Shown here: one piece after another, positions 5,812 to 56,009 of the stretch
Numbering within the stretch: position 1 is the first letter of the stretch
Layout of the letters: each line of letters starts with the position of its first letter
Origin: a virus
UHGV virus genome: UHGV-1353844
Strand: one strand, 5' to 3'
DNA: 64,000 nucleotides
Notes under the pieces: model-generated
The model's database searches: none
Seen by the model: the letters and a program-made list of their open reading frames with translations, nothing else
What the model was told of the DNA's origin: nothing
Made by a program: the position numbers and the translations under genes

Positions 5812-6417
5812 TTATTGATGGTCAACAATCGGACCACTCCACACTTCTGACGTTTCCGGTGCGGTAAGATTAGCCGCCTGTGCTGACGGTACACACAGTA
5901 AAACTAACCCTTGCTTAGCAAGATAGTGCTGCATTCTTGCGGCCTGTACTGCGGTGTCCACAATAACGAGCTCAGCGCCACGTAGAAGCGCTAAAGCCGC
6001 TTGGCCTTCTTGCGGTGTGGTAAACGCGTCTGAGTCGTCCAGAATGCGTTTGAGGCGGTTATACGCAAGTCCTGTAACGTTACAGTGTTCGGTACGTAAA
6101 TCAACAACCATTTCGTTATAGACCCCCACAACCTGTTGCGTAGAGTTTGGATAAAAGCGAAACGAGGCACGACGACGCGCACGACGGACTTCAGAAATCG
6201 CACGTTGGAGTACCACTAATACGTACTTCGGTGCTGCGTCTGACGTCGGTCTACGCATCTTCGCTAACCGCGCTGCCAAATCGAGAACTTTCGTTAACGG
6301 GTAGCGGTGCTTAAACCCCTCCCGTTCAATCGTCACCCCACGCTTTGGTAGCTTACCGGTTTTGTTGATATACGCCACCGTAATCAGCAGTAATGAGTCG
6401 AGAATCATCTCTGACAT
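5812..6417 (-). CDS. hypothetical protein (~201 aa)
   Basis: ORF track; ATG at second codon with GAGGG RBS 7-8 nt upstream. Confidence 0.55.
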   Translation of the reverse strand: MSEMILDSLLLITVAYINKTGKLPKRGVTIEREGFKHRYPLTKVLDLAARLAKMRRPTSDAAPKYVLVVLQRAISEVRRARRRASFRFYPNSTQQVVGVYNEMVVDLRTEHCNVTGLAYNRLKRILDDSDAFTTPQEGQAALALLRGAELVIVDTAVQAARMQHYLAKQGLVLLCVPSAQAANLTAPETSEVWSGPIVDHQ

Positions 6418-6430
6418 CACAATACCCTCT

Positions 6431-6802
6431 TTAGAACCCCTCGAGAACAGCTTTCACAAATTCATAAACCGTGCGTCGGTGTTCTTCAAGTGGATAAACA
6501 AACTTAGAATAATCGTTGTTCCAGACAACCGGATAGAGGTCACCGTCACAACTTAAATAGCTCTTACGAACCATGTAATAATCTAAACCTACACGGAAGT
6601 TTAACGACAAACTGCCGTGTTTACTACAAACGTGTAGCTGGAGCGATTTCACACCGTCACGGGTTGGCGTTTCAATCGTTTCCGCATACAATACATCCGA
6701 ACACTGTTCTATAACGCTAACGACATCTCTGAGGTTGTTGTGAGCATCAATGGTCGCTTTTCGGAGAGCGTCGGTGTATTGCTGAAGTTCTCGATAGAAC
6801 AT
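6431..6802 (-). CDS. hypothetical protein (123 aa)
   Basis: ORF track; AGGAG RBS 9 nt upstream of ATG at 6802; overlaps 3' end of upstream gene by 94 nt. Confidence 0.5.
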   Translation of the reverse strand: MFYRELQQYTDALRKATIDAHNNLRDVVSVIEQCSDVLYAETIETPTRDGVKSLQLHVCSKHGSLSLNFRVGLDYYMVRKSYLSCDGDLYPVVWNNDYSKFVYPLEEHRRTVYEFVKAVLEGF

Positions 6803-7341
6803 CCTGCTAATCTCCTGTCTCTACCATAAGGCAGAGGAAATGCTTTGTGTTCGTATTCTGCAACGACGTAGGCAGGATAGAACAAAAGGTATTTATAGAA
6901 CGTGGCTAATGTAACGTCTTTCGGGGTAGCCAGAAAGTAATTAAGGTCAGGGTTATCTGGGAATGCAAAATGTATTCCGGTATACACCTGACCGTGATAT
7001 TCACCGTTAAAGGGCGTGACGGCACAACGGGGATGTGTTGGCTCAACGTGTAACCAACGACTCCCTACGTGATAAACACCACGTACCGTCGCGTTTCGTG
7101 TTTTACCCAAATAACGGCAACGAATATTCTTTTCCCACGCAGCACGTTGCGTGGGAGAACCCAGAGAAACAAACCGCGTTAAAGCTTCAGGTGTAAAGTA
7201 ATCAAAAATGCCGGTCGGTAAACACCAACACGCTTTATCGATTCGCACCACTCTCCAACCAGGACGAAAACCCACAGCGTAACGCTCTACACCAAAAGTA
7301 TATCTAGACCCGTCGTGAAACGGTACGAATCTTGCAGCCAT
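6709..7341 (-). CDS. hypothetical protein (210 aa)
   Basis: ORF track; abuts GNAT gene stop at 7343. Confidence 0.5.
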   Translation of the reverse strand: MAARFVPFHDGSRYTFGVERYAVGFRPGWRVVRIDKACWCLPTGIFDYFTPEALTRFVSLGSPTQRAAWEKNIRCRYLGKTRNATVRGVYHVGSRWLHVEPTHPRCAVTPFNGEYHGQVYTGIHFAFPDNPDLNYFLATPKDVTLATFYKYLLFYPAYVVAEYEHKAFPLPYGRDRRLAGCSIENFSNTPTLSEKRPLMLTTTSEMSLAL

Positions 7342-7342
7342 T

Positions 7343-7810
7343 TTAGATTTCCTTTATCATTTCCCTGCATTCGGTACGGAATCCCATTTTCTCATACAAG
7401 GAGATAGCTTTAACGTTGTTGTCTAACACATCCAGACTCATCCAACCACAACCTTTGGACTTTCCGTATTCACGGACTTTGTCCATAAGCGCACGCCCTA
7501 CCCCTTGAGAACGTGCTTCAGGAACCACATAGTAATTCCCGATGTAAACGAACGTGTCTTTTGAGCAAGAACCCAATGAGAACGTCATAAAGCCCAGAAG
7601 CTGTTCGTTATCATCCACCGCACACGCACAGAGATAATCTTGAGGCCAAATCTCTTCTAAACGTTCGATGGGGTTGAACGTGTCACGTCCAGTTAACTGA
7701 CTAATACGCACTTTCTCTTCTGCGAACAACATGTTGTGCAGTTTGAGTACCTGGTCGCCGTATAACTTTCCGTATTTACTGTCGGGTTTGAGAATAATAG
7801 TAATACGCAT
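7343..7810 (-). CDS. GNAT-family N-acetyltransferase (155 aa)
   Basis: Classic GNAT motif VVPEARSQGVGRALM ... AISLYEKMGF; start overlaps upstream stop at 7810. Confidence 0.75.
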   Translation of the reverse strand: MRITIILKPDSKYGKLYGDQVLKLHNMLFAEEKVRISQLTGRDTFNPIERLEEIWPQDYLCACAVDDNEQLLGFMTFSLGSCSKDTFVYIGNYYVVPEARSQGVGRALMDKVREYGKSKGCGWMSLDVLDNNVKAISLYEKMGFRTECREMIKEI

Positions 7811-8943
7811 TATTTAACCTCAATCAGCGACAACCTGCACCATTCCAGTAAGCCTTCCGCAACACGCACTAACGAGGTAGTAAACGCATCTTCTAAACGC
7901 AGTGCGTTCTTATACCGAACGGTAGCATCGCGTAACTCACGACCGTCTAACGACTTCAGCTCTTTTTTCATTCGCTGAACTTCATCGTAAATACCGGTAT
8001 AACCAACGCTACGTCGCTTCGTACCACGCTGACGTAAAGCTCGGATAATTTTTTCAACGGCTTCGAGAGCTGAACCGATTTCGTGTAAGTTCAGAGATTT
8101 GATTGTGTGGCCAAAATCACCATCACGGGCAATCGCCCACTCAATCTTACCGTTGTCGTGTTCAACGACCACCACGTTACCTGGCCACGGATACGCTTTC
8201 ACCGTTTTAAACGGATCGATAATACCGAACAACCCTGCACTACGTTTAATCGCCCAGTTCGTTGAGCGGCCTACTTTCTCCAAGCCACTCTCAGTAACTT
8301 TCTTGCTCTTACCGATAATGGTGCGCGTTTTAACGGTATACTCGTTGACCATCGCATCCATTGCGTTCAGGTTCTTACTGAACTCAATACACGCTTTTAC
8401 GTTAGGTTTGTCTTCTAAACAAACTTTGGTCGTCCAGCTTCCCGTGTCGCAGTCAACCGGTTTTAAGGTGTCTTTGTCACCGATTAAACTTAGACGAGCA
8501 TTTAACTTTTGCAGTTTGCGCTCTAAGGTCGTTGCTTTAGACGTCGCTTCTTTTAATTCCTTAATGACTTCTTTACCCGCAACTTCGGCAAAATCCACAA
8601 AACGTAAAGCAAGTTGTTTGGAATGTTTACCTGCGAAATTCGCTGATGCTTTTGCACCTGCACTGGCAGCACGCCCTGCTACCCGACTTACGCCACGAAC
8701 CGCACGTCCGGTGAGTCGTGCAGCCGCTTTGCCTATCCCTTTATCAGGTTCCGTGTCTGACAAAAACTGCGCACGGTGCATCATGGCCGCAGACTCTGAC
8801 GCAACAACCACATCATCCAAAAGCCAACGTTTACGGATAGCAACGATAGCCGGATAATTGTCTTTTACTCCAATGGATTCTAACGCTACGAGTCGGTCGT
8901 AATCGTCACAAAGCACTTCTAAGTCGCTATCTAACGTTGACAT
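7810..8943 (-). CDS. hypothetical protein, tandem paralog A (377 aa)
   Basis: ORF track; C-terminal ~150 aa alignable with the next gene (AYPWPGNVVVV / YTGIYDEV / RLEDAFTT). Confidence 0.6.
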   Translation of the reverse strand: MSTLDSDLEVLCDDYDRLVALESIGVKDNYPAIVAIRKRWLLDDVVVASESAAMMHRAQFLSDTEPDKGIGKAAARLTGRAVRGVSRVAGRAASAGAKASANFAGKHSKQLALRFVDFAEVAGKEVIKELKEATSKATTLERKLQKLNARLSLIGDKDTLKPVDCDTGSWTTKVCLEDKPNVKACIEFSKNLNAMDAMVNEYTVKTRTIIGKSKKVTESGLEKVGRSTNWAIKRSAGLFGIIDPFKTVKAYPWPGNVVVVEHDNGKIEWAIARDGDFGHTIKSLNLHEIGSALEAVEKIIRALRQRGTKRRSVGYTGIYDEVQRMKKELKSLDGRELRDATVRYKNALRLEDAFTTSLVRVAEGLLEWCRLSLIEVK

Positions 8944-8949
8944 GATAAT

Positions 8950-9834
8950 TTACTCGTTTGCTTTGATCGTCGCTTTCACCCAGGCTAACAACCCATCCGC
9001 TACTCGGTCGAGTGCAGTGGTCACCGCGTCTTCCAACTTAATAACGTTTTTGTAAGCGCGTTTAACCTCGGAGATTTCATCCCGATCGACTTTGTACATT
9101 TTATCTTTAATCTTTTCAGCTTCTTGGTAAATACCGCTGTAGCCAAAAAGTCCGTTTTTCGCGTTGCGGGATTCCATGATGTCTGCAATCTTACGCACCG
9201 CTTTTAATGCCTGGTGACATTCACGCTCGGTGAGTGCGGCAATAGTGTCTTTATACATCCCGCCGTTACCGATACCGAACGTAGTCTTACTTTTACCCAG
9301 TTCACCCTGCGTAACGACGTAGACGTTTCCTGCTAACGGATACGCAGTAACTTCCGTGCCCATCAAATTAGGGATATACCCCATCGCACGATGAATCGCT
9401 GAACTACTGGAGTAGCTCAATTCTTTTAACATCCCGTCTTCAACTTTACGGTGAACTTCTTTAGGACCGATAGCCATCGGGTTAGTCACAACCAGGAATT
9501 TCTTCGCAGCCGCCTCGAACCCGTTTACGGAATCGACTAACTTAAGACATTCTTTTAAATCAGGGACGTCTTCGTAACACACACGCGCACACCAGGTGCC
9601 CGCAGGAACCACTTTGGCAGAAAACGTTTTGACGTCTTTCAACCGATCTTCTAATCGGTCAGCGTCTTCTTTCATCGTTTTCATTTTGCCGGTGACGACA
9701 CGCTTAGCATCGTGTAATCGGTTGTTCACTAAACCGATAATTTCCAAATAGACCTGGTGGCCATACGAGGCAGAAGAGTCGGTGCGATCGCGAGACTCCT
9801 GTCCCACCTGTTGGCCAATCCAACTACGACGCAT
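8950..9834 (-). CDS. hypothetical protein, tandem paralog B (294 aa)
   Basis: ORF track; AAAGGA RBS; shares AYPLAGNVYVV / YSGIYQEA / KLEDAVTT and a Cys pattern with paralog A. Confidence 0.6.
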   Translation of the reverse strand: MRRSWIGQQVGQESRDRTDSSASYGHQVYLEIIGLVNNRLHDAKRVVTGKMKTMKEDADRLEDRLKDVKTFSAKVVPAGTWCARVCYEDVPDLKECLKLVDSVNGFEAAAKKFLVVTNPMAIGPKEVHRKVEDGMLKELSYSSSSAIHRAMGYIPNLMGTEVTAYPLAGNVYVVTQGELGKSKTTFGIGNGGMYKDTIAALTERECHQALKAVRKIADIMESRNAKNGLFGYSGIYQEAEKIKDKMYKVDRDEISEVKRAYKNVIKLEDAVTTALDRVADGLLAWVKATIKANE

Positions 9835-50693: not shown

Positions 50694-52367
50694 TTAGTCG
50701 ACGAGTTTATTAAACTTCCCACCTTTTACCAGTGGGTTGTTCTTAGCCCGTTTCAGAATCGTCGCCAGCGCACCGGCGGCAGTTGTCCAGGACTTAATCA
50801 GTTCCGTCGTAAACGCAACAGAATCCCACACGTTTCGGTCTGGGTCCATCACGGTCATCGTCGTCAATTCACGACCAAAGCCCAATTCGTACAGATCTGA
50901 ACGTTGTGCTTCATCACGGAACGCTTGTTCCATCATCTGCCAAGCTTTGCTGTTCATACCAGAACGCGATTGGCGAGACATGTCTTTCAACTGGCTAACC
51001 ACTTTCTCGATCTGTTTCTCCACCACTTTGAAGCGGTCGAGAGACGTATCGGCCGGTCCTTTAGTAATCCCGCTACGGACTAACGTAATCAGACACGCTA
51101 ACAGTTCACGAGAATCACCGCTGGTAAAGCTCAGCTCCTGGCGCATAATTTCCATGTTAGCCGCAGAACCGAAATACGAGTTAACCCCCGCAGAAGCGAT
51201 GATGAATCCATTACCGAACTCGCGAGACGAATAGCCGATTAAGTCACGATCGGATTTCACCATAATCGTTGGTAGCGGTGCACCACGACACGATGCAAAA
51301 TCGGTTAACGCTATTTCAATTTCACCGTTAAGCAACGCCAGTGCTTGAACGATGCCCGTTGCACTAATGCGGTTTTCTTGATCCGTACCCAGCGTGCGGT
51401 CACCCGAGAAGTAATACGTCTTGAGGTCTTTTAACGACTGTTCTAGACGTTTTAACCCTGCGGAGAAGTTCTCCAGGTTTCTTCCCATCTGGCGGTAGAA
51501 CGCTTCGTTAGGAATGTTGACACCTGCTTTACGAACGTCCGCCGGTAAACCTTTGTACACTTCGTCACAAACCTGCTGACTGAATACCGCACAACCGATA
51601 TTAGTACGCAGCAACGTATCGAGGATATCGTGGATAACCTGCTGTTCATTCTGACGACGTTTCGTGTAGTCTTTAAACATCCCTACGAACGGAGAACGTC
51701 CCAGAGCTGCGCTAAGCTTATTCAACAGGTCTTCTGCGTTCATGTTCGTCAGGACTTCATCGGCCATCAGAATAGCCAATTCCAGGTTATTCAGTTCGCC
51801 GTCCTTCAGTCCCTTCGACGCGTCCATATACGCTTCTTTCAGCGCGGTAATTTTCAGACGTTCAATGAAAGGAACCGCATCGATCTTCTCTAAGAGCTTG
51901 TCACGATACTCGTCCCCATCCACGTCAGCAGCCCCTGCAAACGGTACAGCGTTACTGATAATCCAGTTCAGGATTTTCATAATCCCCATCATTACCATCA
52001 CGATAAGACTGATCTTACCGAAGTTTGCGTAAGACTCTAACGCGATGACGGTTTCTTTCTGATGGGTACGGCTGTAATTCGACGTCAGGATGCTTTGCAC
52101 TGCTTTTGGAATAGTACCCGGACGCAAAGATTCCGTCGCTACGGCAACGTCACGGTTTAGACCCGCTTTACGAACTTCACGAAGAATCGCTTCAATCTGC
52201 GCGATAATACGTGAACCGTAAATCAAATCGGCTTCGTTACGCTGCATGTAGAGGTTGAGCTGGCTGACAGAATCGATACGTTCTTCCATTCGCTGTTCGA
52301 TAATGGTTGGAAGTTCGTCGAGTTTCCATTGCGGCTGTGCAATGTTTGCTGTCATTTCCATGCTCAT
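50694..52367 (-). CDS. hypothetical protein (557 aa)
   Basis: ORF track; convergent with plus gene across terminator. Confidence 0.6.
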   Translation of the reverse strand: MSMEMTANIAQPQWKLDELPTIIEQRMEERIDSVSQLNLYMQRNEADLIYGSRIIAQIEAILREVRKAGLNRDVAVATESLRPGTIPKAVQSILTSNYSRTHQKETVIALESYANFGKISLIVMVMMGIMKILNWIISNAVPFAGAADVDGDEYRDKLLEKIDAVPFIERLKITALKEAYMDASKGLKDGELNNLELAILMADEVLTNMNAEDLLNKLSAALGRSPFVGMFKDYTKRRQNEQQVIHDILDTLLRTNIGCAVFSQQVCDEVYKGLPADVRKAGVNIPNEAFYRQMGRNLENFSAGLKRLEQSLKDLKTYYFSGDRTLGTDQENRISATGIVQALALLNGEIEIALTDFASCRGAPLPTIMVKSDRDLIGYSSREFGNGFIIASAGVNSYFGSAANMEIMRQELSFTSGDSRELLACLITLVRSGITKGPADTSLDRFKVVEKQIEKVVSQLKDMSRQSRSGMNSKAWQMMEQAFRDEAQRSDLYELGFGRELTTMTVMDPDRNVWDSVAFTTELIKSWTTAAGALATILKRAKNNPLVKGGKFNKLVD

Positions 52368-52807
52368 GATAATTTGCCTCGCGTTTCATCCATGTAGAAT
52401 TTCACTGCGTCGACAAAACGTTCCAGCCACAGGTTGACGGTGTTCCAAACGTCATCACCTAAGGCTTCGTTGAAAATCTCACGTACGGAGAAATTTTCAA
52501 TTGCACGACGTCCGCCCCAGGCGCTGTCGTAACGGTTACAGAACAACGCAACGGTCAGGTCTTCAATAGTACCTAAGTCAACGCAGTAAAGTTCGTTAAC
52601 GTCGGATACCACGTTTTTCATCAGTGGTCGAAGTTTGATTTGTGAAACTTCGTTAGAACCATACGGTCCGTTGTCCGGCATATCAGCATTATACGCCAGC
52701 GAGAATGCAACCAGGCCAGTCAGGGCACGCTGCGCCTGAACACCTTTACCTTCGTTAGCACGTTTAAAATCCAGAACTAACGAATTCAGAGAAACTTTAT
52801 GCGTCAT
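52364..52807 (-). CDS. hypothetical protein (147 aa)
   Basis: ORF track; stop overlaps next start. Confidence 0.5.
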   Translation of the reverse strand: MTHKVSLNSLVLDFKRANEGKGVQAQRALTGLVAFSLAYNADMPDNGPYGSNEVSQIKLRPLMKNVVSDVNELYCVDLGTIEDLTVALFCNRYDSAWGGRRAIENFSVREIFNEALGDDVWNTVNLWLERFVDAVKFYMDETRGKLS

Positions 52808-52821
52808 GGTTTTACCTTTAC

Positions 52822-54189
52822 TTAATCGACGTTAAACATGGCAGATGCGATACGGAGGTCATTCGACATATACTTCCCGATAGCGCGCTGATAATCCACC
52901 GCAGCGCGGTCACGACGCCCTTTCGGTGTCAGCGTCTTCCAGATAAACTGATACAGGTTATCTTTGTCTTTAACCGTAAGGAGAATTCGATCAATTACCG
53001 CGATACCATCCAGAATACGTTTACGTTGCTCGTTAGCCGCTTTCGTGTTTTTGTCTTTGATGGTATTCAGTTCTTCTACCAGCGTACGGCGCATCGCTTC
53101 AAAACGTTCCTGCGGCGGATCGTAGATGGTGTTATCTGGGTCGTTCAGAATCATGCCAAACGTAACAGAGATAACCGGAAGAATCGGAATGGCGGCTTGG
53201 GCAATCAGCGCAGTCACACGGAACAACTCAATCGTCAAATGGACACCCATGTTCATATACGACGAGTTACGCAGTAGATAGAACGGGCTGGTTTCCATTT
53301 TGTACAGCGCGGAAGCTAAGTACGGGGCCGCACCGAAGCGGGCAGCGAAGTCGTCAGCAGCACGTTCCCAGGTACGGTTTGCAAAGCCTTGACTACCGGT
53401 AATGAACGGACGGTCTAGCAGCAAATCTGTTACCAGATGCATGTAGACGTTTTCTTTCTTGTACTCAGTGCAGATGGTCTCAGGCTGATTCACTTTCGTG
53501 TTCAGCATTCGTTCAACGTCTTTAACCACACGTAAACGAACAGCTGGGTCTTCGCTTTCCATGATGCGGTTAGCCGCAGCGTCTGCCAGTAAATCCGTTA
53601 CCACGGTACGCATTAGCGTACGGAAGTAATAATAAACGTGCCCGACTTCGTGAAGGATTACCGAAGCAACTTCCAAATCGGTGAGCTCCAGTTTCTCCAA
53701 CAGCACCGGAGTCAGGTAAAGCGGGGAACTGACTTTGCTCAAGTCGCCGCTGATTTTCGCACTGGAATCGTCAATGCTGCTGTTCAGTTCGTTTTCTTTA
53801 ATAAACTTACTGTACATGTCCAGGTCTTTATTGCCTGCGTACAGTGCACGCGCCATTGACGCAATGACCGGACTGTTCGCGTCCAGCTTAGGCGGTTCTA
53901 TGCCTGCGAAGGCAACGTCGAATAATCCGAGTTCGCTACCGTTCTTAAAGTTAATGCTAATGCCGTTGGTTTTAAATACCCAATCAGAAACGCCAGAGCT
54001 CTCGTAACCGGCCGGACTGAAGTCTCCGGCTGCACGAAATTTAGCAATAATGTCTGCCAGTTCTGCGAGTTTCTTTTTATCTTGGAATTTAATTGATTCT
54101 GCGGCTACAACCTTTGCATCCGCAACTGATGCAATGTGATTTTGCCAGTATCCCATTTGTGTTTCCTTTTGAGAAATTACATTACCCAC
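52822..54189 (-). CDS. HExxH zinc-metallopeptidase-like protein with hydrophobic segment
   Basis: Motif VASVILHEVGHVYYYF; downstream acidic WERAADDF; hydrophobic stretch LTIELFRVTALIAQAAIPILPVISVTFGMIL. Confidence 0.55.
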   Translation of the reverse strand: MGNVISQKETQMGYWQNHIASVADAKVVAAESIKFQDKKKLAELADIIAKFRAAGDFSPAGYESSGVSDWVFKTNGISINFKNGSELGLFDVAFAGIEPPKLDANSPVIASMARALYAGNKDLDMYSKFIKENELNSSIDDSSAKISGDLSKVSSPLYLTPVLLEKLELTDLEVASVILHEVGHVYYYFRTLMRTVVTDLLADAAANRIMESEDPAVRLRVVKDVERMLNTKVNQPETICTEYKKENVYMHLVTDLLLDRPFITGSQGFANRTWERAADDFAARFGAAPYLASALYKMETSPFYLLRNSSYMNMGVHLTIELFRVTALIAQAAIPILPVISVTFGMILNDPDNTIYDPPQERFEAMRRTLVEELNTIKDKNTKAANEQRKRILDGIAVIDRILLTVKDKDNLYQFIWKTLTPKGRRDRAAVDYQRAIGKYMSNDLRIASAMFNVD

Positions 54190-54227
54190 AAATCAGTATA
54201 GCAGCCGCTAGATTTGAGAGTGAAAAC

Positions 54228-56009
54228 ATGAATAACTATTACGCACCGGAAGACGTTATTGCCAAAGAGTGCAAATTTGTTTCGTACGCAACCGATCAGC
54301 AGAAAGAAAACGACTTCGTGCTCATAAAGGAGGTCGTCCATACTAAAGATGGCAGATTCATCCCGCGTATCGTCATGCGTGAAAATCTGAAACGGCCTAT
54401 CTACATTACTTTACCACAACACCGTAACCATCAAGAAAAGAAAGAATACGAAGAACGTAGCAAGTGTCAGGAATACATGACCACGGATGTGATGATGTCG
54501 CAAACTATCCAGATGGGTCTAGGGGCAAGATTTCCTGACAAAAAACGTTCATTACGTCAAGTCTGTACCTCTCCGTACGTTTACTGGGCTGACTTACCTA
54601 TCACCAGCTGGATTAAAGAAAGGTATGTAAAGAAATGGCCTAACGCTGTTTCACCTAACCGTATTTGTGTATACGACGTGGAAACTCGAGAAGAAGACAA
54701 ATCTCGAGACCCTTGGATTATGAGTTTTGTTTTGGATGACGAAATTCATTTCTTCGCAACGAAAGACTACGTTGCGCGTTGTGGTCGTGAGAACTTCGAA
54801 ACGCGACTAATTAAACGTGCTCAGGAGTTACTTTCTAAAATTGCTTTTCGTGGCAAAGACAAAGAAGGCAATTCTAAGACCGAAATCAAGGACGTTATCG
54901 CTGGATATAAAATCTTCGTTTACGAATGCTTAAACTCTGGCTGCTGTATTCAACGCATGTTTGAAGAGATTCACCCTCGTCTACCTGACTTATTAGTTGC
55001 ATGGAACCACGAGTTCGATATTTCACGCATGTTAGAAGCACTAGAAGCCGCAGGGATTCCACCGGAAGACGTCTTTTGTCATCCTGATGTACCGAAACAA
55101 TACCGTCGTGTTTACTTCAAGAAAGACGAAGCATCGAAGAAAACGGAATCGAAATCACTGACCAAAGCGCCTTCACAACAGTGGCACGTACTTTATTGTA
55201 CCGCATCGTTCTACTGTGTGGATGCAATGTGTCTGTTCCGTTCACTGAGGGTTCACGAAGGTCAACGTCCTTCTTACAAACTTAACGCTATTCTGGAAAC
55301 CGAACTGGGCTTAAACAAGTTAGACTTGCCAGAGCTGCCTTACGAGGAGAAACTGGAATGGCACTTAAAAGCACAGAAAGAGTTCCCGCTCGAATACTGC
55401 GTTTATAACATCTTCGATAACCTAATGATTGTGTTGTTGGATAAAAAGACGAACGACTTGTCTTCGGCAATTTCCGTACTGGCAGGTTATTCGATGTACG
55501 ATATCTTCCCTTCGTTACCGAAACGTATTTGTATTGCTTACACCTATTACCTTTATGAACAAGGATTAGTTATCGGTTGTGTAGGTAGTGCAATGCGTAA
55601 TGATTTCGATGAAGAGGTTATCGGTACGGACGGTTGGATTGTTACGTTAACTGCGTGTATGAACGCAGAAAACGGGCTAAGAGGAATCATTAAAGAGTTT
55701 GATGATTTCTACACTGCTTTCCGTGGGCAAACCGCAGATGCGGACTTAACTCAGGCGTATCCTTCTGCAACGAACATGATGAACCAGTCTCGTGAAACAA
55801 CGTTAATCGAGTTGCTGAGTATTCATGGTGTTCCTGAAGAAGTACGACGTCGCGTAGGGATTAACCTTACCGCAGGACGAGTTAATGCAATGGAAATCGC
55901 AACAGACTTCTTCTTACTGCCAGATAAGAACGTTGTGCTAGAAGCGTTCTTACGTCGTCAGGGAGAAACCATTACCGATCCGTTTGAATACATCAAAACC
56001 ACTCACTAA
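54228..56009 (+). CDS. hypothetical protein (~593 aa) with DxE and YNxFD exonuclease-like motifs
   Basis: Track ORF shortened to M46 (MNNYYAPEDV) to clear the divergent minus gene; motifs VYDVETREED and YNIFDNLMIV; function speculative. Confidence 0.55.
   Translation: MNNYYAPEDVIAKECKFVSYATDQQKENDFVLIKEVVHTKDGRFIPRIVMRENLKRPIYITLPQHRNHQEKKEYEERSKCQEYMTTDVMMSQTIQMGLGARFPDKKRSLRQVCTSPYVYWADLPITSWIKERYVKKWPNAVSPNRICVYDVETREEDKSRDPWIMSFVLDDEIHFFATKDYVARCGRENFETRLIKRAQELLSKIAFRGKDKEGNSKTEIKDVIAGYKIFVYECLNSGCCIQRMFEEIHPRLPDLLVAWNHEFDISRMLEALEAAGIPPEDVFCHPDVPKQYRRVYFKKDEASKKTESKSLTKAPSQQWHVLYCTASFYCVDAMCLFRSLRVHEGQRPSYKLNAILETELGLNKLDLPELPYEEKLEWHLKAQKEFPLEYCVYNIFDNLMIVLLDKKTNDLSSAISVLAGYSMYDIFPSLPKRICIAYTYYLYEQGLVIGCVGSAMRNDFDEEVIGTDGWIVTLTACMNAENGLRGIIKEFDDFYTAFRGQTADADLTQAYPSATNMMNQSRETTLIELLSIHGVPEEVRRRVGINLTAGRVNAMEIATDFFLLPDKNVVLEAFLRRQGETITDPFEYIKTTH

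Follow-up and report, generated by a model that had tools for sequence, protein, structure and literature searches.

The gene on the minus strand at positions 52822-54156 of a 64,000-nucleotide stretch (hereafter, the window) of the virus genome UHGV-1353844 was analyzed computationally. The best explanation of the results is that this gene encodes a capsid-packaged, M48-like zinc pro-peptidase that is probably ejected to act at the inner membrane of the host or at the vesicle of early infection. We regard the identity, packaging, and processing of the protein, taken jointly, as highly probable, and we hold the explanation as a whole tentatively, at somewhat less than an even chance.

The original prediction had placed an open reading frame (ORF) at 52822-54189 (minus strand). 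This ORF was present and proved to be a real gene, matching PHROG 2767, a group without assigned function (E = 6e-151), over residues 12-453 of the GTG-started ORF and 439 of the 442 profile positions. The start codon, however, had to be revised. A Shine-Dalgarno sequence, AAGGAAA (54162-54168, minus strand), is located 7 nt upstream of the ATG at 54156, whereas none precedes the GTG at 54189, and all orthologues start with MG(Y/H)W. Based on this ribosome-binding site and the orthologue starts, the coding sequence was assigned to 52822-54156 (minus strand), giving a protein of 444 amino acids (aa); residues are numbered from ATG 54156 throughout. The orthologues are SPN3US gp45 ("putative virion structural protein 1"), Asesino gp62, phiKZ gp84 (PHIKZ084), Goslar gp067 (Goslar_00067), RAY gp286, and RSL2 ORF178. 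The window protein is 72% identical to the SPN3US-type protein and 23-25% identical over the full length to the phiKZ, Goslar, and RSL2 proteins.

A zincin HExxH motif and an acidic ERAADD sequence as a candidate for the third zinc ligand had been noticed previously, and both were borne out. The stretch ILHEVGHVYYYF holds H169-E170-V-G172-H173 (53638-53652, minus strand), that is, two predicted zinc ligands and the predicted catalytic Glu, and WERAADDFAARFG holds E264 and D268 (WERAADDF; E264-R-A-A-D268 at 53353-53367, minus strand), of which E264 is the predicted third ligand. The occurrence of HExxH is far beyond chance, the number expected from the composition being 0.003 in a protein with only 5 His. 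Of the 177 relatives retrieved, 173 carry HExGH; the other 4 were fragments or frameshifted calls (SPFM phages). Among 143 full-length members with a mean identity of ~25%, the only invariant columns were those of G137, H169, E170, G172, H173, E264, D268, and R351. Loss of the motif in orthologues, named in the original prediction as an observation that would speak against it, was not seen, because HExxH is invariant in 143/143 aligned relatives. The motif Y345-D346-P-P-x-x-R351 (53104-53124, minus strand), in which Y345 and D346 are at least 90% conserved, lies shortly after the hydrophobic hairpin described below and may contribute to the active site or substrate pocket.

When the family profile was searched against PDB sequences, human ZMPSTE24 (M48A) was detected with an E value of 3e-5. 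In this alignment, the family HExxH fell on H335-H339 (HELGH) of ZMPSTE24 and the invariant E264 fell on E415, the third zinc ligand. A single-sequence search against the PDB sequences gave noise only. Pfam M48 (PF01435; MEROPS M48, clan MA(E)) was matched by 35 of the 110 members searched at E <= 0.01 (best, 3.4e-6); no other peptidase family recurred among these members, and most of them, including the window protein, were below the gathering score of Pfam M48. In NCBIfam, only HtpX was matched (E 0.046). The previous assignment to an M48/M56-type peptidase is thus upheld for the M48-type active site but not for M56 (BlaR1/MecR1), which was rejected with zero Pfam M56 matches among the members.

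An AlphaFold2 (AF2) model built on a deep alignment had a mean local confidence (pLDDT) of 90.5 and a global confidence (pTM) of 0.90. It contains an M48-type catalytic core fold at aa ~120-290 (53287-53799, minus strand), consisting of three strands (126-148), an active-site helix (160-199) carrying H169-E-V-G-H173, and a glutamate helix (256-288) carrying E264-R-A-A-D268, in agreement with the E-x-x-(A/S)-D pattern of M48. Structures in BFVD matched the model with full-length template modeling scores (TM-scores) of 0.6-0.75 to family proteins. From the sequence comparisons and the model, the protein is predicted to be an M48-type gluzincin core placed inside family-specific helical N- and C-terminal domains. 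Its active site appears M48-like, and its overall architecture, as modeled, is that of no described M48 subfamily; neither the multi-pass architecture of M48A/B nor the secreted or lipoprotein architecture of M48C with TPR was matched by the window protein.

Two features had escaped the original prediction: a 20-residue leader ending in a prohead-protease motif, and the status of the gene as core gene cg22 (phiKZ gp84), which is described below. The leader or propeptide, MGYWQNHIASVADAKVVAAE (54097-54156, minus strand), ends with V17-A18-A19-E20|S21, corresponding to A-S-E20|S in SPN3US gp45, which is cut at ASE-20. In SPN3US, the prohead protease gp245, which is of the T4 gp21 and phiKZ gp175 type, has nine substrates. 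Among them is gp45, whose propeptide of only 20 residues was likened by the authors to the capsid-targeting sequences (CTS) of T4. The gp245 cleavage logo is A-x-E, with V favored at P4 and S at P1', and the window site agrees with it at both of these positions. In SPN3US heads, 14 cleavage sites have been mapped; each of them lies after A-x-E, and cutting with a different specificity was not reported. The window protein is a putative substrate of the prohead protease. The original prediction was right that it is not that protease itself.

The site is retained throughout the family. The E20 column is Glu in 141 of 143 relatives, P3 is S, A, or G in 127 of 143, and the residues after the cut follow (A/S)-I-x-(F/Y/H)-Q, and the leader, 7 to 30 residues long, shows no conservation of sequence. 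In the AF2 model, confidence was low in the leader (pLDDT 51-57) and jumped from ~55 to ~95 exactly at residue 21. In metagenomic members of 800-1450 aa, the peptidase forms the C-terminal module and the junction x-x-E|(A/S)-I-x-F-Q is kept. Because the site is kept both family-wide and at the junctions of the long forms, prohead-protease processing and a cleavable leader appear to be ancestral to the family. No signal peptide, lipobox, or N-terminal transmembrane (TM) segment was found in the window protein. The long forms (P0048, P0062, P0091, P0110, P0125, and P0129) have the appearance of polyproteins cut by the prohead protease, and the N-terminal extensions of P0048 and P0129 gave weak matches to PHROG 8131, the gp47 family (E 1.5e-6 and 1e-4, respectively).

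Published proteomics places the orthologues inside the capsid. SPN3US gp45, whose numbering was anchored here by the published start coordinates of gp47, was listed as "Head. Processed at ASE-20", with a mass of 50.3 kDa, or 48.2 kDa once processed. The spectral count divided by mass (SC/M) in SPN3US was 2.99 for gp45, compared with 2.17 for gp47, 1.29 for the 12-copy portal, and 8.84 for the ~264-copy sheath. In the heads of a tailless mutant, the numbers of peptide-spectrum matches were 899 for gp45, 829 for gp47, 480 for the portal, and 10319 for the major capsid protein. In purified Goslar virions, gp067 was estimated at ~48 copies (range 32-76) and assigned to no modeled substructure; neither gp84 nor gp067 is among the proteins resolved in the capsid maps of phiKZ or Goslar. 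These mass spectrometry data for SPN3US and Goslar indicate that the orthologues are capsid-internal virion proteins present at tens of copies. By analogy with the 72%-identical SPN3US gp45, the window protein would be cleaved and incorporated into the capsid in the same manner. In the Goslar capsid map, an unassigned low-contour density lies beside gp65 (Goslar 6300-9541; preprint Figure S8), and gp65 is the positional equivalent of the 557-aa protein in the window; gp067 is a possible candidate for this density.

The hydrophobic segment of about 30 residues reported previously was also found, at aa ~298-337. The hydrophobicity of its most hydrophobic 19-mer (KD19) reached a maximum of 1.92 at 314-332, and this 19-mer lies at the same position in 141 of 143 members, with a family mean KD19 of 2.21. 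The segment is an uncharged run with a median length of ~28 residues, and Gly, Ala, Ser, and Pro are abundant in its middle; the family keeps its position and its lack of charge but not its sequence. In the AF2 model, it forms a hydrophobic helical hairpin of aa 303-320 and 326-337 (53146-53250, minus strand; pLDDT 85-96). The apparent insertion energy (dGapp) was calculated on an approximate Hessa scale; a TM-grade window (dGapp < 0) was present in 39% of members, and the median over the family was +0.56. Because the capsid is membrane-free and the model is compact, the hairpin is probably buried in the packaged form, and it could become membrane-active after release. The claim that the protein is membrane-embedded is not supported, given that the N-terminus has no signal or TM segment, that the window segment has a value of about +3.6 kcal/mol, and that the orthologues in SPN3US and Goslar are capsid-internal.

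The peptidase gene is the first of a tightly packed three-gene operon on the minus strand. After a 14-nt gap, it is followed by a gene for a 147-aa protein (52364-52807, minus strand; PHROG 8529), the orthologue of the SPN3US head protein gp46, and then, with an ATGA overlap, by a gene for a 557-aa protein (50694-52367, minus strand; PHROG 8131), the orthologue of the SPN3US head protein gp47. In SPN3US, gp47 is essential, the mutant particles being normal-looking and non-infectious; a role in ejection was inferred for gp47, which contains a TM helix. In the window gp47-like protein, both SPN3US cleavage sites (VATE-79|S and IALE-111|S) are retained without change of position and are directly followed by a TM-like helix at 119-137 (KD19 2.16). 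With respect to position, the 147-aa gene corresponds to phiKZ gp85 and Goslar gp66 of the capsid vertex-binding complex, and the 557-aa gene corresponds to phiKZ gp86. Homology of the downstream genes to phiKZ gp85 and gp86 was not detectable by BLASTP (E 3.0 and 0.21, respectively), and the PHROG assignments placed them in different, clade-specific PHROGs. The link to the vertex-binding complex is positional only, because neither BLASTP nor PHROG assignment showed homology.

The same order is found elsewhere. In every genome compared, a gene of ~150 aa and then one of ~420-930 aa follow the peptidase gene on the same strand, and the arrangement divergent from a DNA polymerase gene is common to the window, SPN3US, Asesino, OMKO1/phiKZ, Goslar, RAY, RSL2, and PCH45. 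With tblastn, a homologue was found in 203 jumbo-phage records, with a coverage of 94-100% in phiEaH2, SPN3US, RSL2, and PhiEaH1 and of 69-89% in phiKZ-like phages and Goslar. An exhaustive HMMER scan gave matches to 1393 clusters (50% identity), 768 of them at E <= 1e-10, and a profile search for further homologous proteins added one new sequence only. Prichard et al. listed Goslar gp067, phiKZ gp84, and RAY gp286 as Chimalliviridae core gene cg22, a "putative virion structural protein", and gave it without the asterisk, meaning that it is not unique to chimallin-encoding phages. Distant fold matches in BFVD (E 1e-4 to 3e-3) included A0A172JI27, the "Zincin protease" of Bacillus phage AR9, and A0A8S5R503 and A0A8S5TI90 of Myoviridae sp.; these zincin- or M48-annotated matches in AR9 and myoviruses agree with cg22 not being chimallin-specific. 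In transposon sequencing (Tn-seq) of phiKZ, PHIKZ084 (1242 bp) had zero filtered insertions, and ~10 single-read events when all reads were counted. cg22 is a conserved core gene and is probably essential.

On the basis of the above results, we propose the following mechanism. A precursor of ~50 kDa, produced from an operon with two head-internal proteins, would enter the prohead, where the prohead serine protease would cut after A-x-E20 and remove the 20-residue, T4-CTS-like leader; tens of copies of the 48 kDa product would then remain in the mature head, in a ratio of roughly 1:1 to gp47, as shown for the orthologues. H169, H173, and E264 would bind zinc and E170 would activate water in the modeled M48-type core, and we argue that catalysis has been retained because the catalytic residues are invariant down to ~25% identity. 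Conservation of the new N-terminus, (A/S)-I-x-(F/Y/H)-Q, is strong, which suggests that removal of the leader is also a maturation or activation step. Subsequently, the enzyme may be ejected with the DNA, the hairpin may join the host inner membrane or the early-infection (EPI) vesicle, and cleavage of envelope, membrane, or co-ejected proteins may permit productive genome delivery. We rate ejection with membrane-associated action, taken by itself, as possible and rather short of an even chance. It is favored because the position of the hairpin is kept in 141/143 members and 39% have a TM-grade window, because gp47, its partner in the operon, contains a TM helix and has been inferred to be ejected, and because all characterized M48 enzymes (Ste24, HtpX, Oma1, and BepA) act on membrane or envelope proteins. 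The need of chimalliviruses to inject proteins that handle the lipid EPI vesicle was also counted in its favor; injection assays by others concerned Goslar gp60 and gp61 and phiKZ gp90, gp93, gp95, and gp97.

Several observations weigh against this explanation. The window protein scored 18.1 bits (E 0.0025) against Pfam M48, whose gathering threshold is 20.3, and its Foldseek similarity to ZMPSTE24 was weak (E 0.28, TM-score 0.21); by sequence and model, the M48 likeness appears limited to a core of ~130-170 residues. Peptidase activity, zinc binding, and ejection are predictions for every member of the family. The hydrophobic segment of the window protein, with about +3.6 kcal/mol and two prolines, is not TM-grade, and, given the compact model with a pTM of 0.90, it may merely be a buried core hairpin. 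In mature phiKZ virions, gp85 and gp86 are fixed on the inner capsid vertex, so that a capsid-resident role fits as well as an ejected one. The "essential" call for PHIKZ084 may be a polar artefact, because the authors of the Tn-seq study reported that orf85-86, which are equally insertion-free, can be deleted. In addition, the presence of cg22 beyond chimallin phages and the distant AR9 zincin weaken a role specific to the EPI vesicle. Such a role, in which a latent, membrane-inserting M48 protease delivered by the capsid would make, maintain, or open the EPI vesicle, or clear host membrane proteins or defense sensors, with leader removal by the prohead protease as the zymogen switch, is in our view unlikely.

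The main alternative is an enzyme that works within the capsid. In this case, an in-capsid clean-up or maturation peptidase, switched on by removal of the leader, would degrade propeptide and scaffold fragments (111-254 residues, hundreds to thousands of copies) until they are small enough to exit the shell, and it would remain in the mature head only incidentally. The prohead-protease site in the leader is conserved family-wide, the new N-terminus is conserved beyond the needs of the logo in a zymogen-like manner, and the abundance, at tens of copies, is enzyme-like; moreover, the operon is shared with head-internal proteins that are processed, the propeptides of SPN3US are broken into several fragments, which are cleared, the family extends beyond nucleus-forming phages, and M48 enzymes typically cut unfolded polypeptides. 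However, the A-x-E rule at all 14 SPN3US head sites leaves no sign of a second specificity, a single protease matures T4-type heads, it is not obvious what a conserved hydrophobic hairpin would do within a capsid, and the protein is intact in mature heads. We consider this alternative doubtful, with a minor but appreciable chance of being correct.

The same capsid data could be read without any catalysis, the protein being a structural accessory of the vertex complex whose zincin fold and zinc site serve stability rather than proteolysis. The gene adjoins the positional equivalents of the vertex-complex proteins phiKZ gp85 and gp86, its product has an abundance near that of gp47, and the ~48 copies in Goslar are compatible with ~55-60 per capsid; the unassigned density beside Goslar gp65, the minor capsid proteins of unknown identity in phiKZ, and the database label "virion structural protein" point in the same direction. 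Nevertheless, E170, the metal ligands, G172, and D268 are invariant in 143 diverse sequences, whereas pseudo-enzymes usually lose the general base, and the protein is not resolved in the capsid maps of phiKZ or Goslar; a purely structural role seems quite unlikely. Very improbable is an integral-membrane M48/M56-type peptidase that resides in the membrane of the infected cell and cuts host envelope or defense proteins during development. An M48-like active site combined with a hydrophobic segment could suggest such an enzyme, as could automated annotations as BepA or "M48 family lipoprotein protease". Yet the N-terminus is a prohead-protease leader in place of a signal peptide, lipobox, or TM segment, the segment of the window protein is not TM-grade, no member matches Pfam M56, and both purified virions and tailless heads contain the orthologues as head proteins, so that virion proteomics already indicates the capsid and not a membrane fraction. 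Host envelope or defense proteins, the targets suggested previously, are as such possible substrates.

Comparison with known systems shows that SPN3US gp45, phiKZ gp84, Goslar gp067, and RAY gp286 are direct orthologues with no substantive difference; length, synteny, a leader with an x-x-E site, HExGH, E-x-x-x-D, and the hydrophobic hairpin are all shared. In contrast to the M48 enzymes (ZMPSTE24/Ste24 of M48A, HtpX of M48B, BepA/LoiP/YcaL of M48C, and Oma1), the protein has its own all-helical N- and C-terminal domains outside the core. The 7-TM chamber of Ste24, the N-terminal TM pair of HtpX, and the signal peptide and TPR domain of BepA are all absent from it. Its single hydrophobic hairpin comes after the Glu helix, not before it, and the family has a cleavable leader of the capsid-targeting type and is delivered in a virus capsid. 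Like the internal or CTS head proteins of T4, it has a short leader (10-20 residues) that ends in x-x-E and is cut in the prohead by a gp21-type prohead protease; unlike them, its cargo is a predicted metallopeptidase of ~48 kDa encoded by a core gene, and the targeting role of the leader is putative. P22 gp7, gp16, and gp20 and T7 gp14-16 are virion-internal proteins with hydrophobic segments thought to insert in host membranes on ejection, and in T5 Pb2 such segments occur together with a zinc-peptidase motif, which is tied to murein hydrolysis and not to an M48 fold. No sequence or fold relationship links the present family, for which ejection is hypothetical, to these P22, T7, and T5 ejection proteins.

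A few automated GenBank or UniProt annotations already read "M48" or "BepA". In the literature searched, which is incomplete but includes two reviews from 2025-26, papers on the structures of phiKZ and Goslar, and the SPN3US proteomics, we found no discussion of the family as metallopeptidases, and a likewise incomplete search on gp84/PHIKZ084, which did not extend to the phiKZ head proteome, gave no functional statement. Hence, the family was known for its core-gene status and as an uncharacterized "head" or "virion structural" protein, its enzyme nature being largely unnoticed; what the sequence comparisons and the analogy with SPN3US newly suggest is an M48-type core in a new architecture, a pro-leader of the capsid-targeting type, and delivery inside the virion. 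The phiKZ-like nucleus-forming phages are a major model in which most of the ~50 head proteins have no assigned function, and cg22 now gains a predicted biochemical identity, named catalytic residues, and a defined maturation cleavage, which turns a "virion structural protein" into a testable enzyme hypothesis. If ejected, the protein would be a candidate for the effector behind the membrane events early in infection, which await explanation, and if the EPI-vesicle reading were true, it would be the first enzyme assigned to that step. Action inside the capsid would make it a second maturation protease, of which no case is known in tailed-phage heads.

The window phage is ~73% identical in nucleotide sequence to Asesino, phiEaH2, and SPN3US, and no deposited phage is closer; it is a distinct species of jumbo phage in the SPN3US/phiEaH2/Asesino group. 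Upstream of the peptidase operon, a divergent intergenic region of 71 nt (54157-54227) separates it from the DNA polymerase gene and presumably holds divergent promoters. The DNA polymerase ORF was listed at 54093-56009 (plus strand) from TTG 54093, and its true start is ATG 54228 (MNNYYAPEDV); PHROG 3011 aligns to the listed ORF from residue 48.

Two observations on related sequences were also made. In Salmonella phages SPFM1, 5, 7-10, 12, 15, and 20 (P0023-P0029), garbled orthologues were found in which the query matched in many short stretches and HExxH was absent or at odd positions; these look like frameshift or assembly errors and not real variants. The sequence P0001, 99% identical to window positions 52822-54156, represents a cluster of 384 sequences named from Salmonella enterica serovar Enteritidis assemblies, and no phage record in the phage collection searched was as close. 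The Enteritidis contigs behind this cluster are up to 108 kb in length. It seems that this jumbo phage was sequenced along with many S. Enteritidis isolates, as might result from a carrier state, pseudolysogeny, or contamination.

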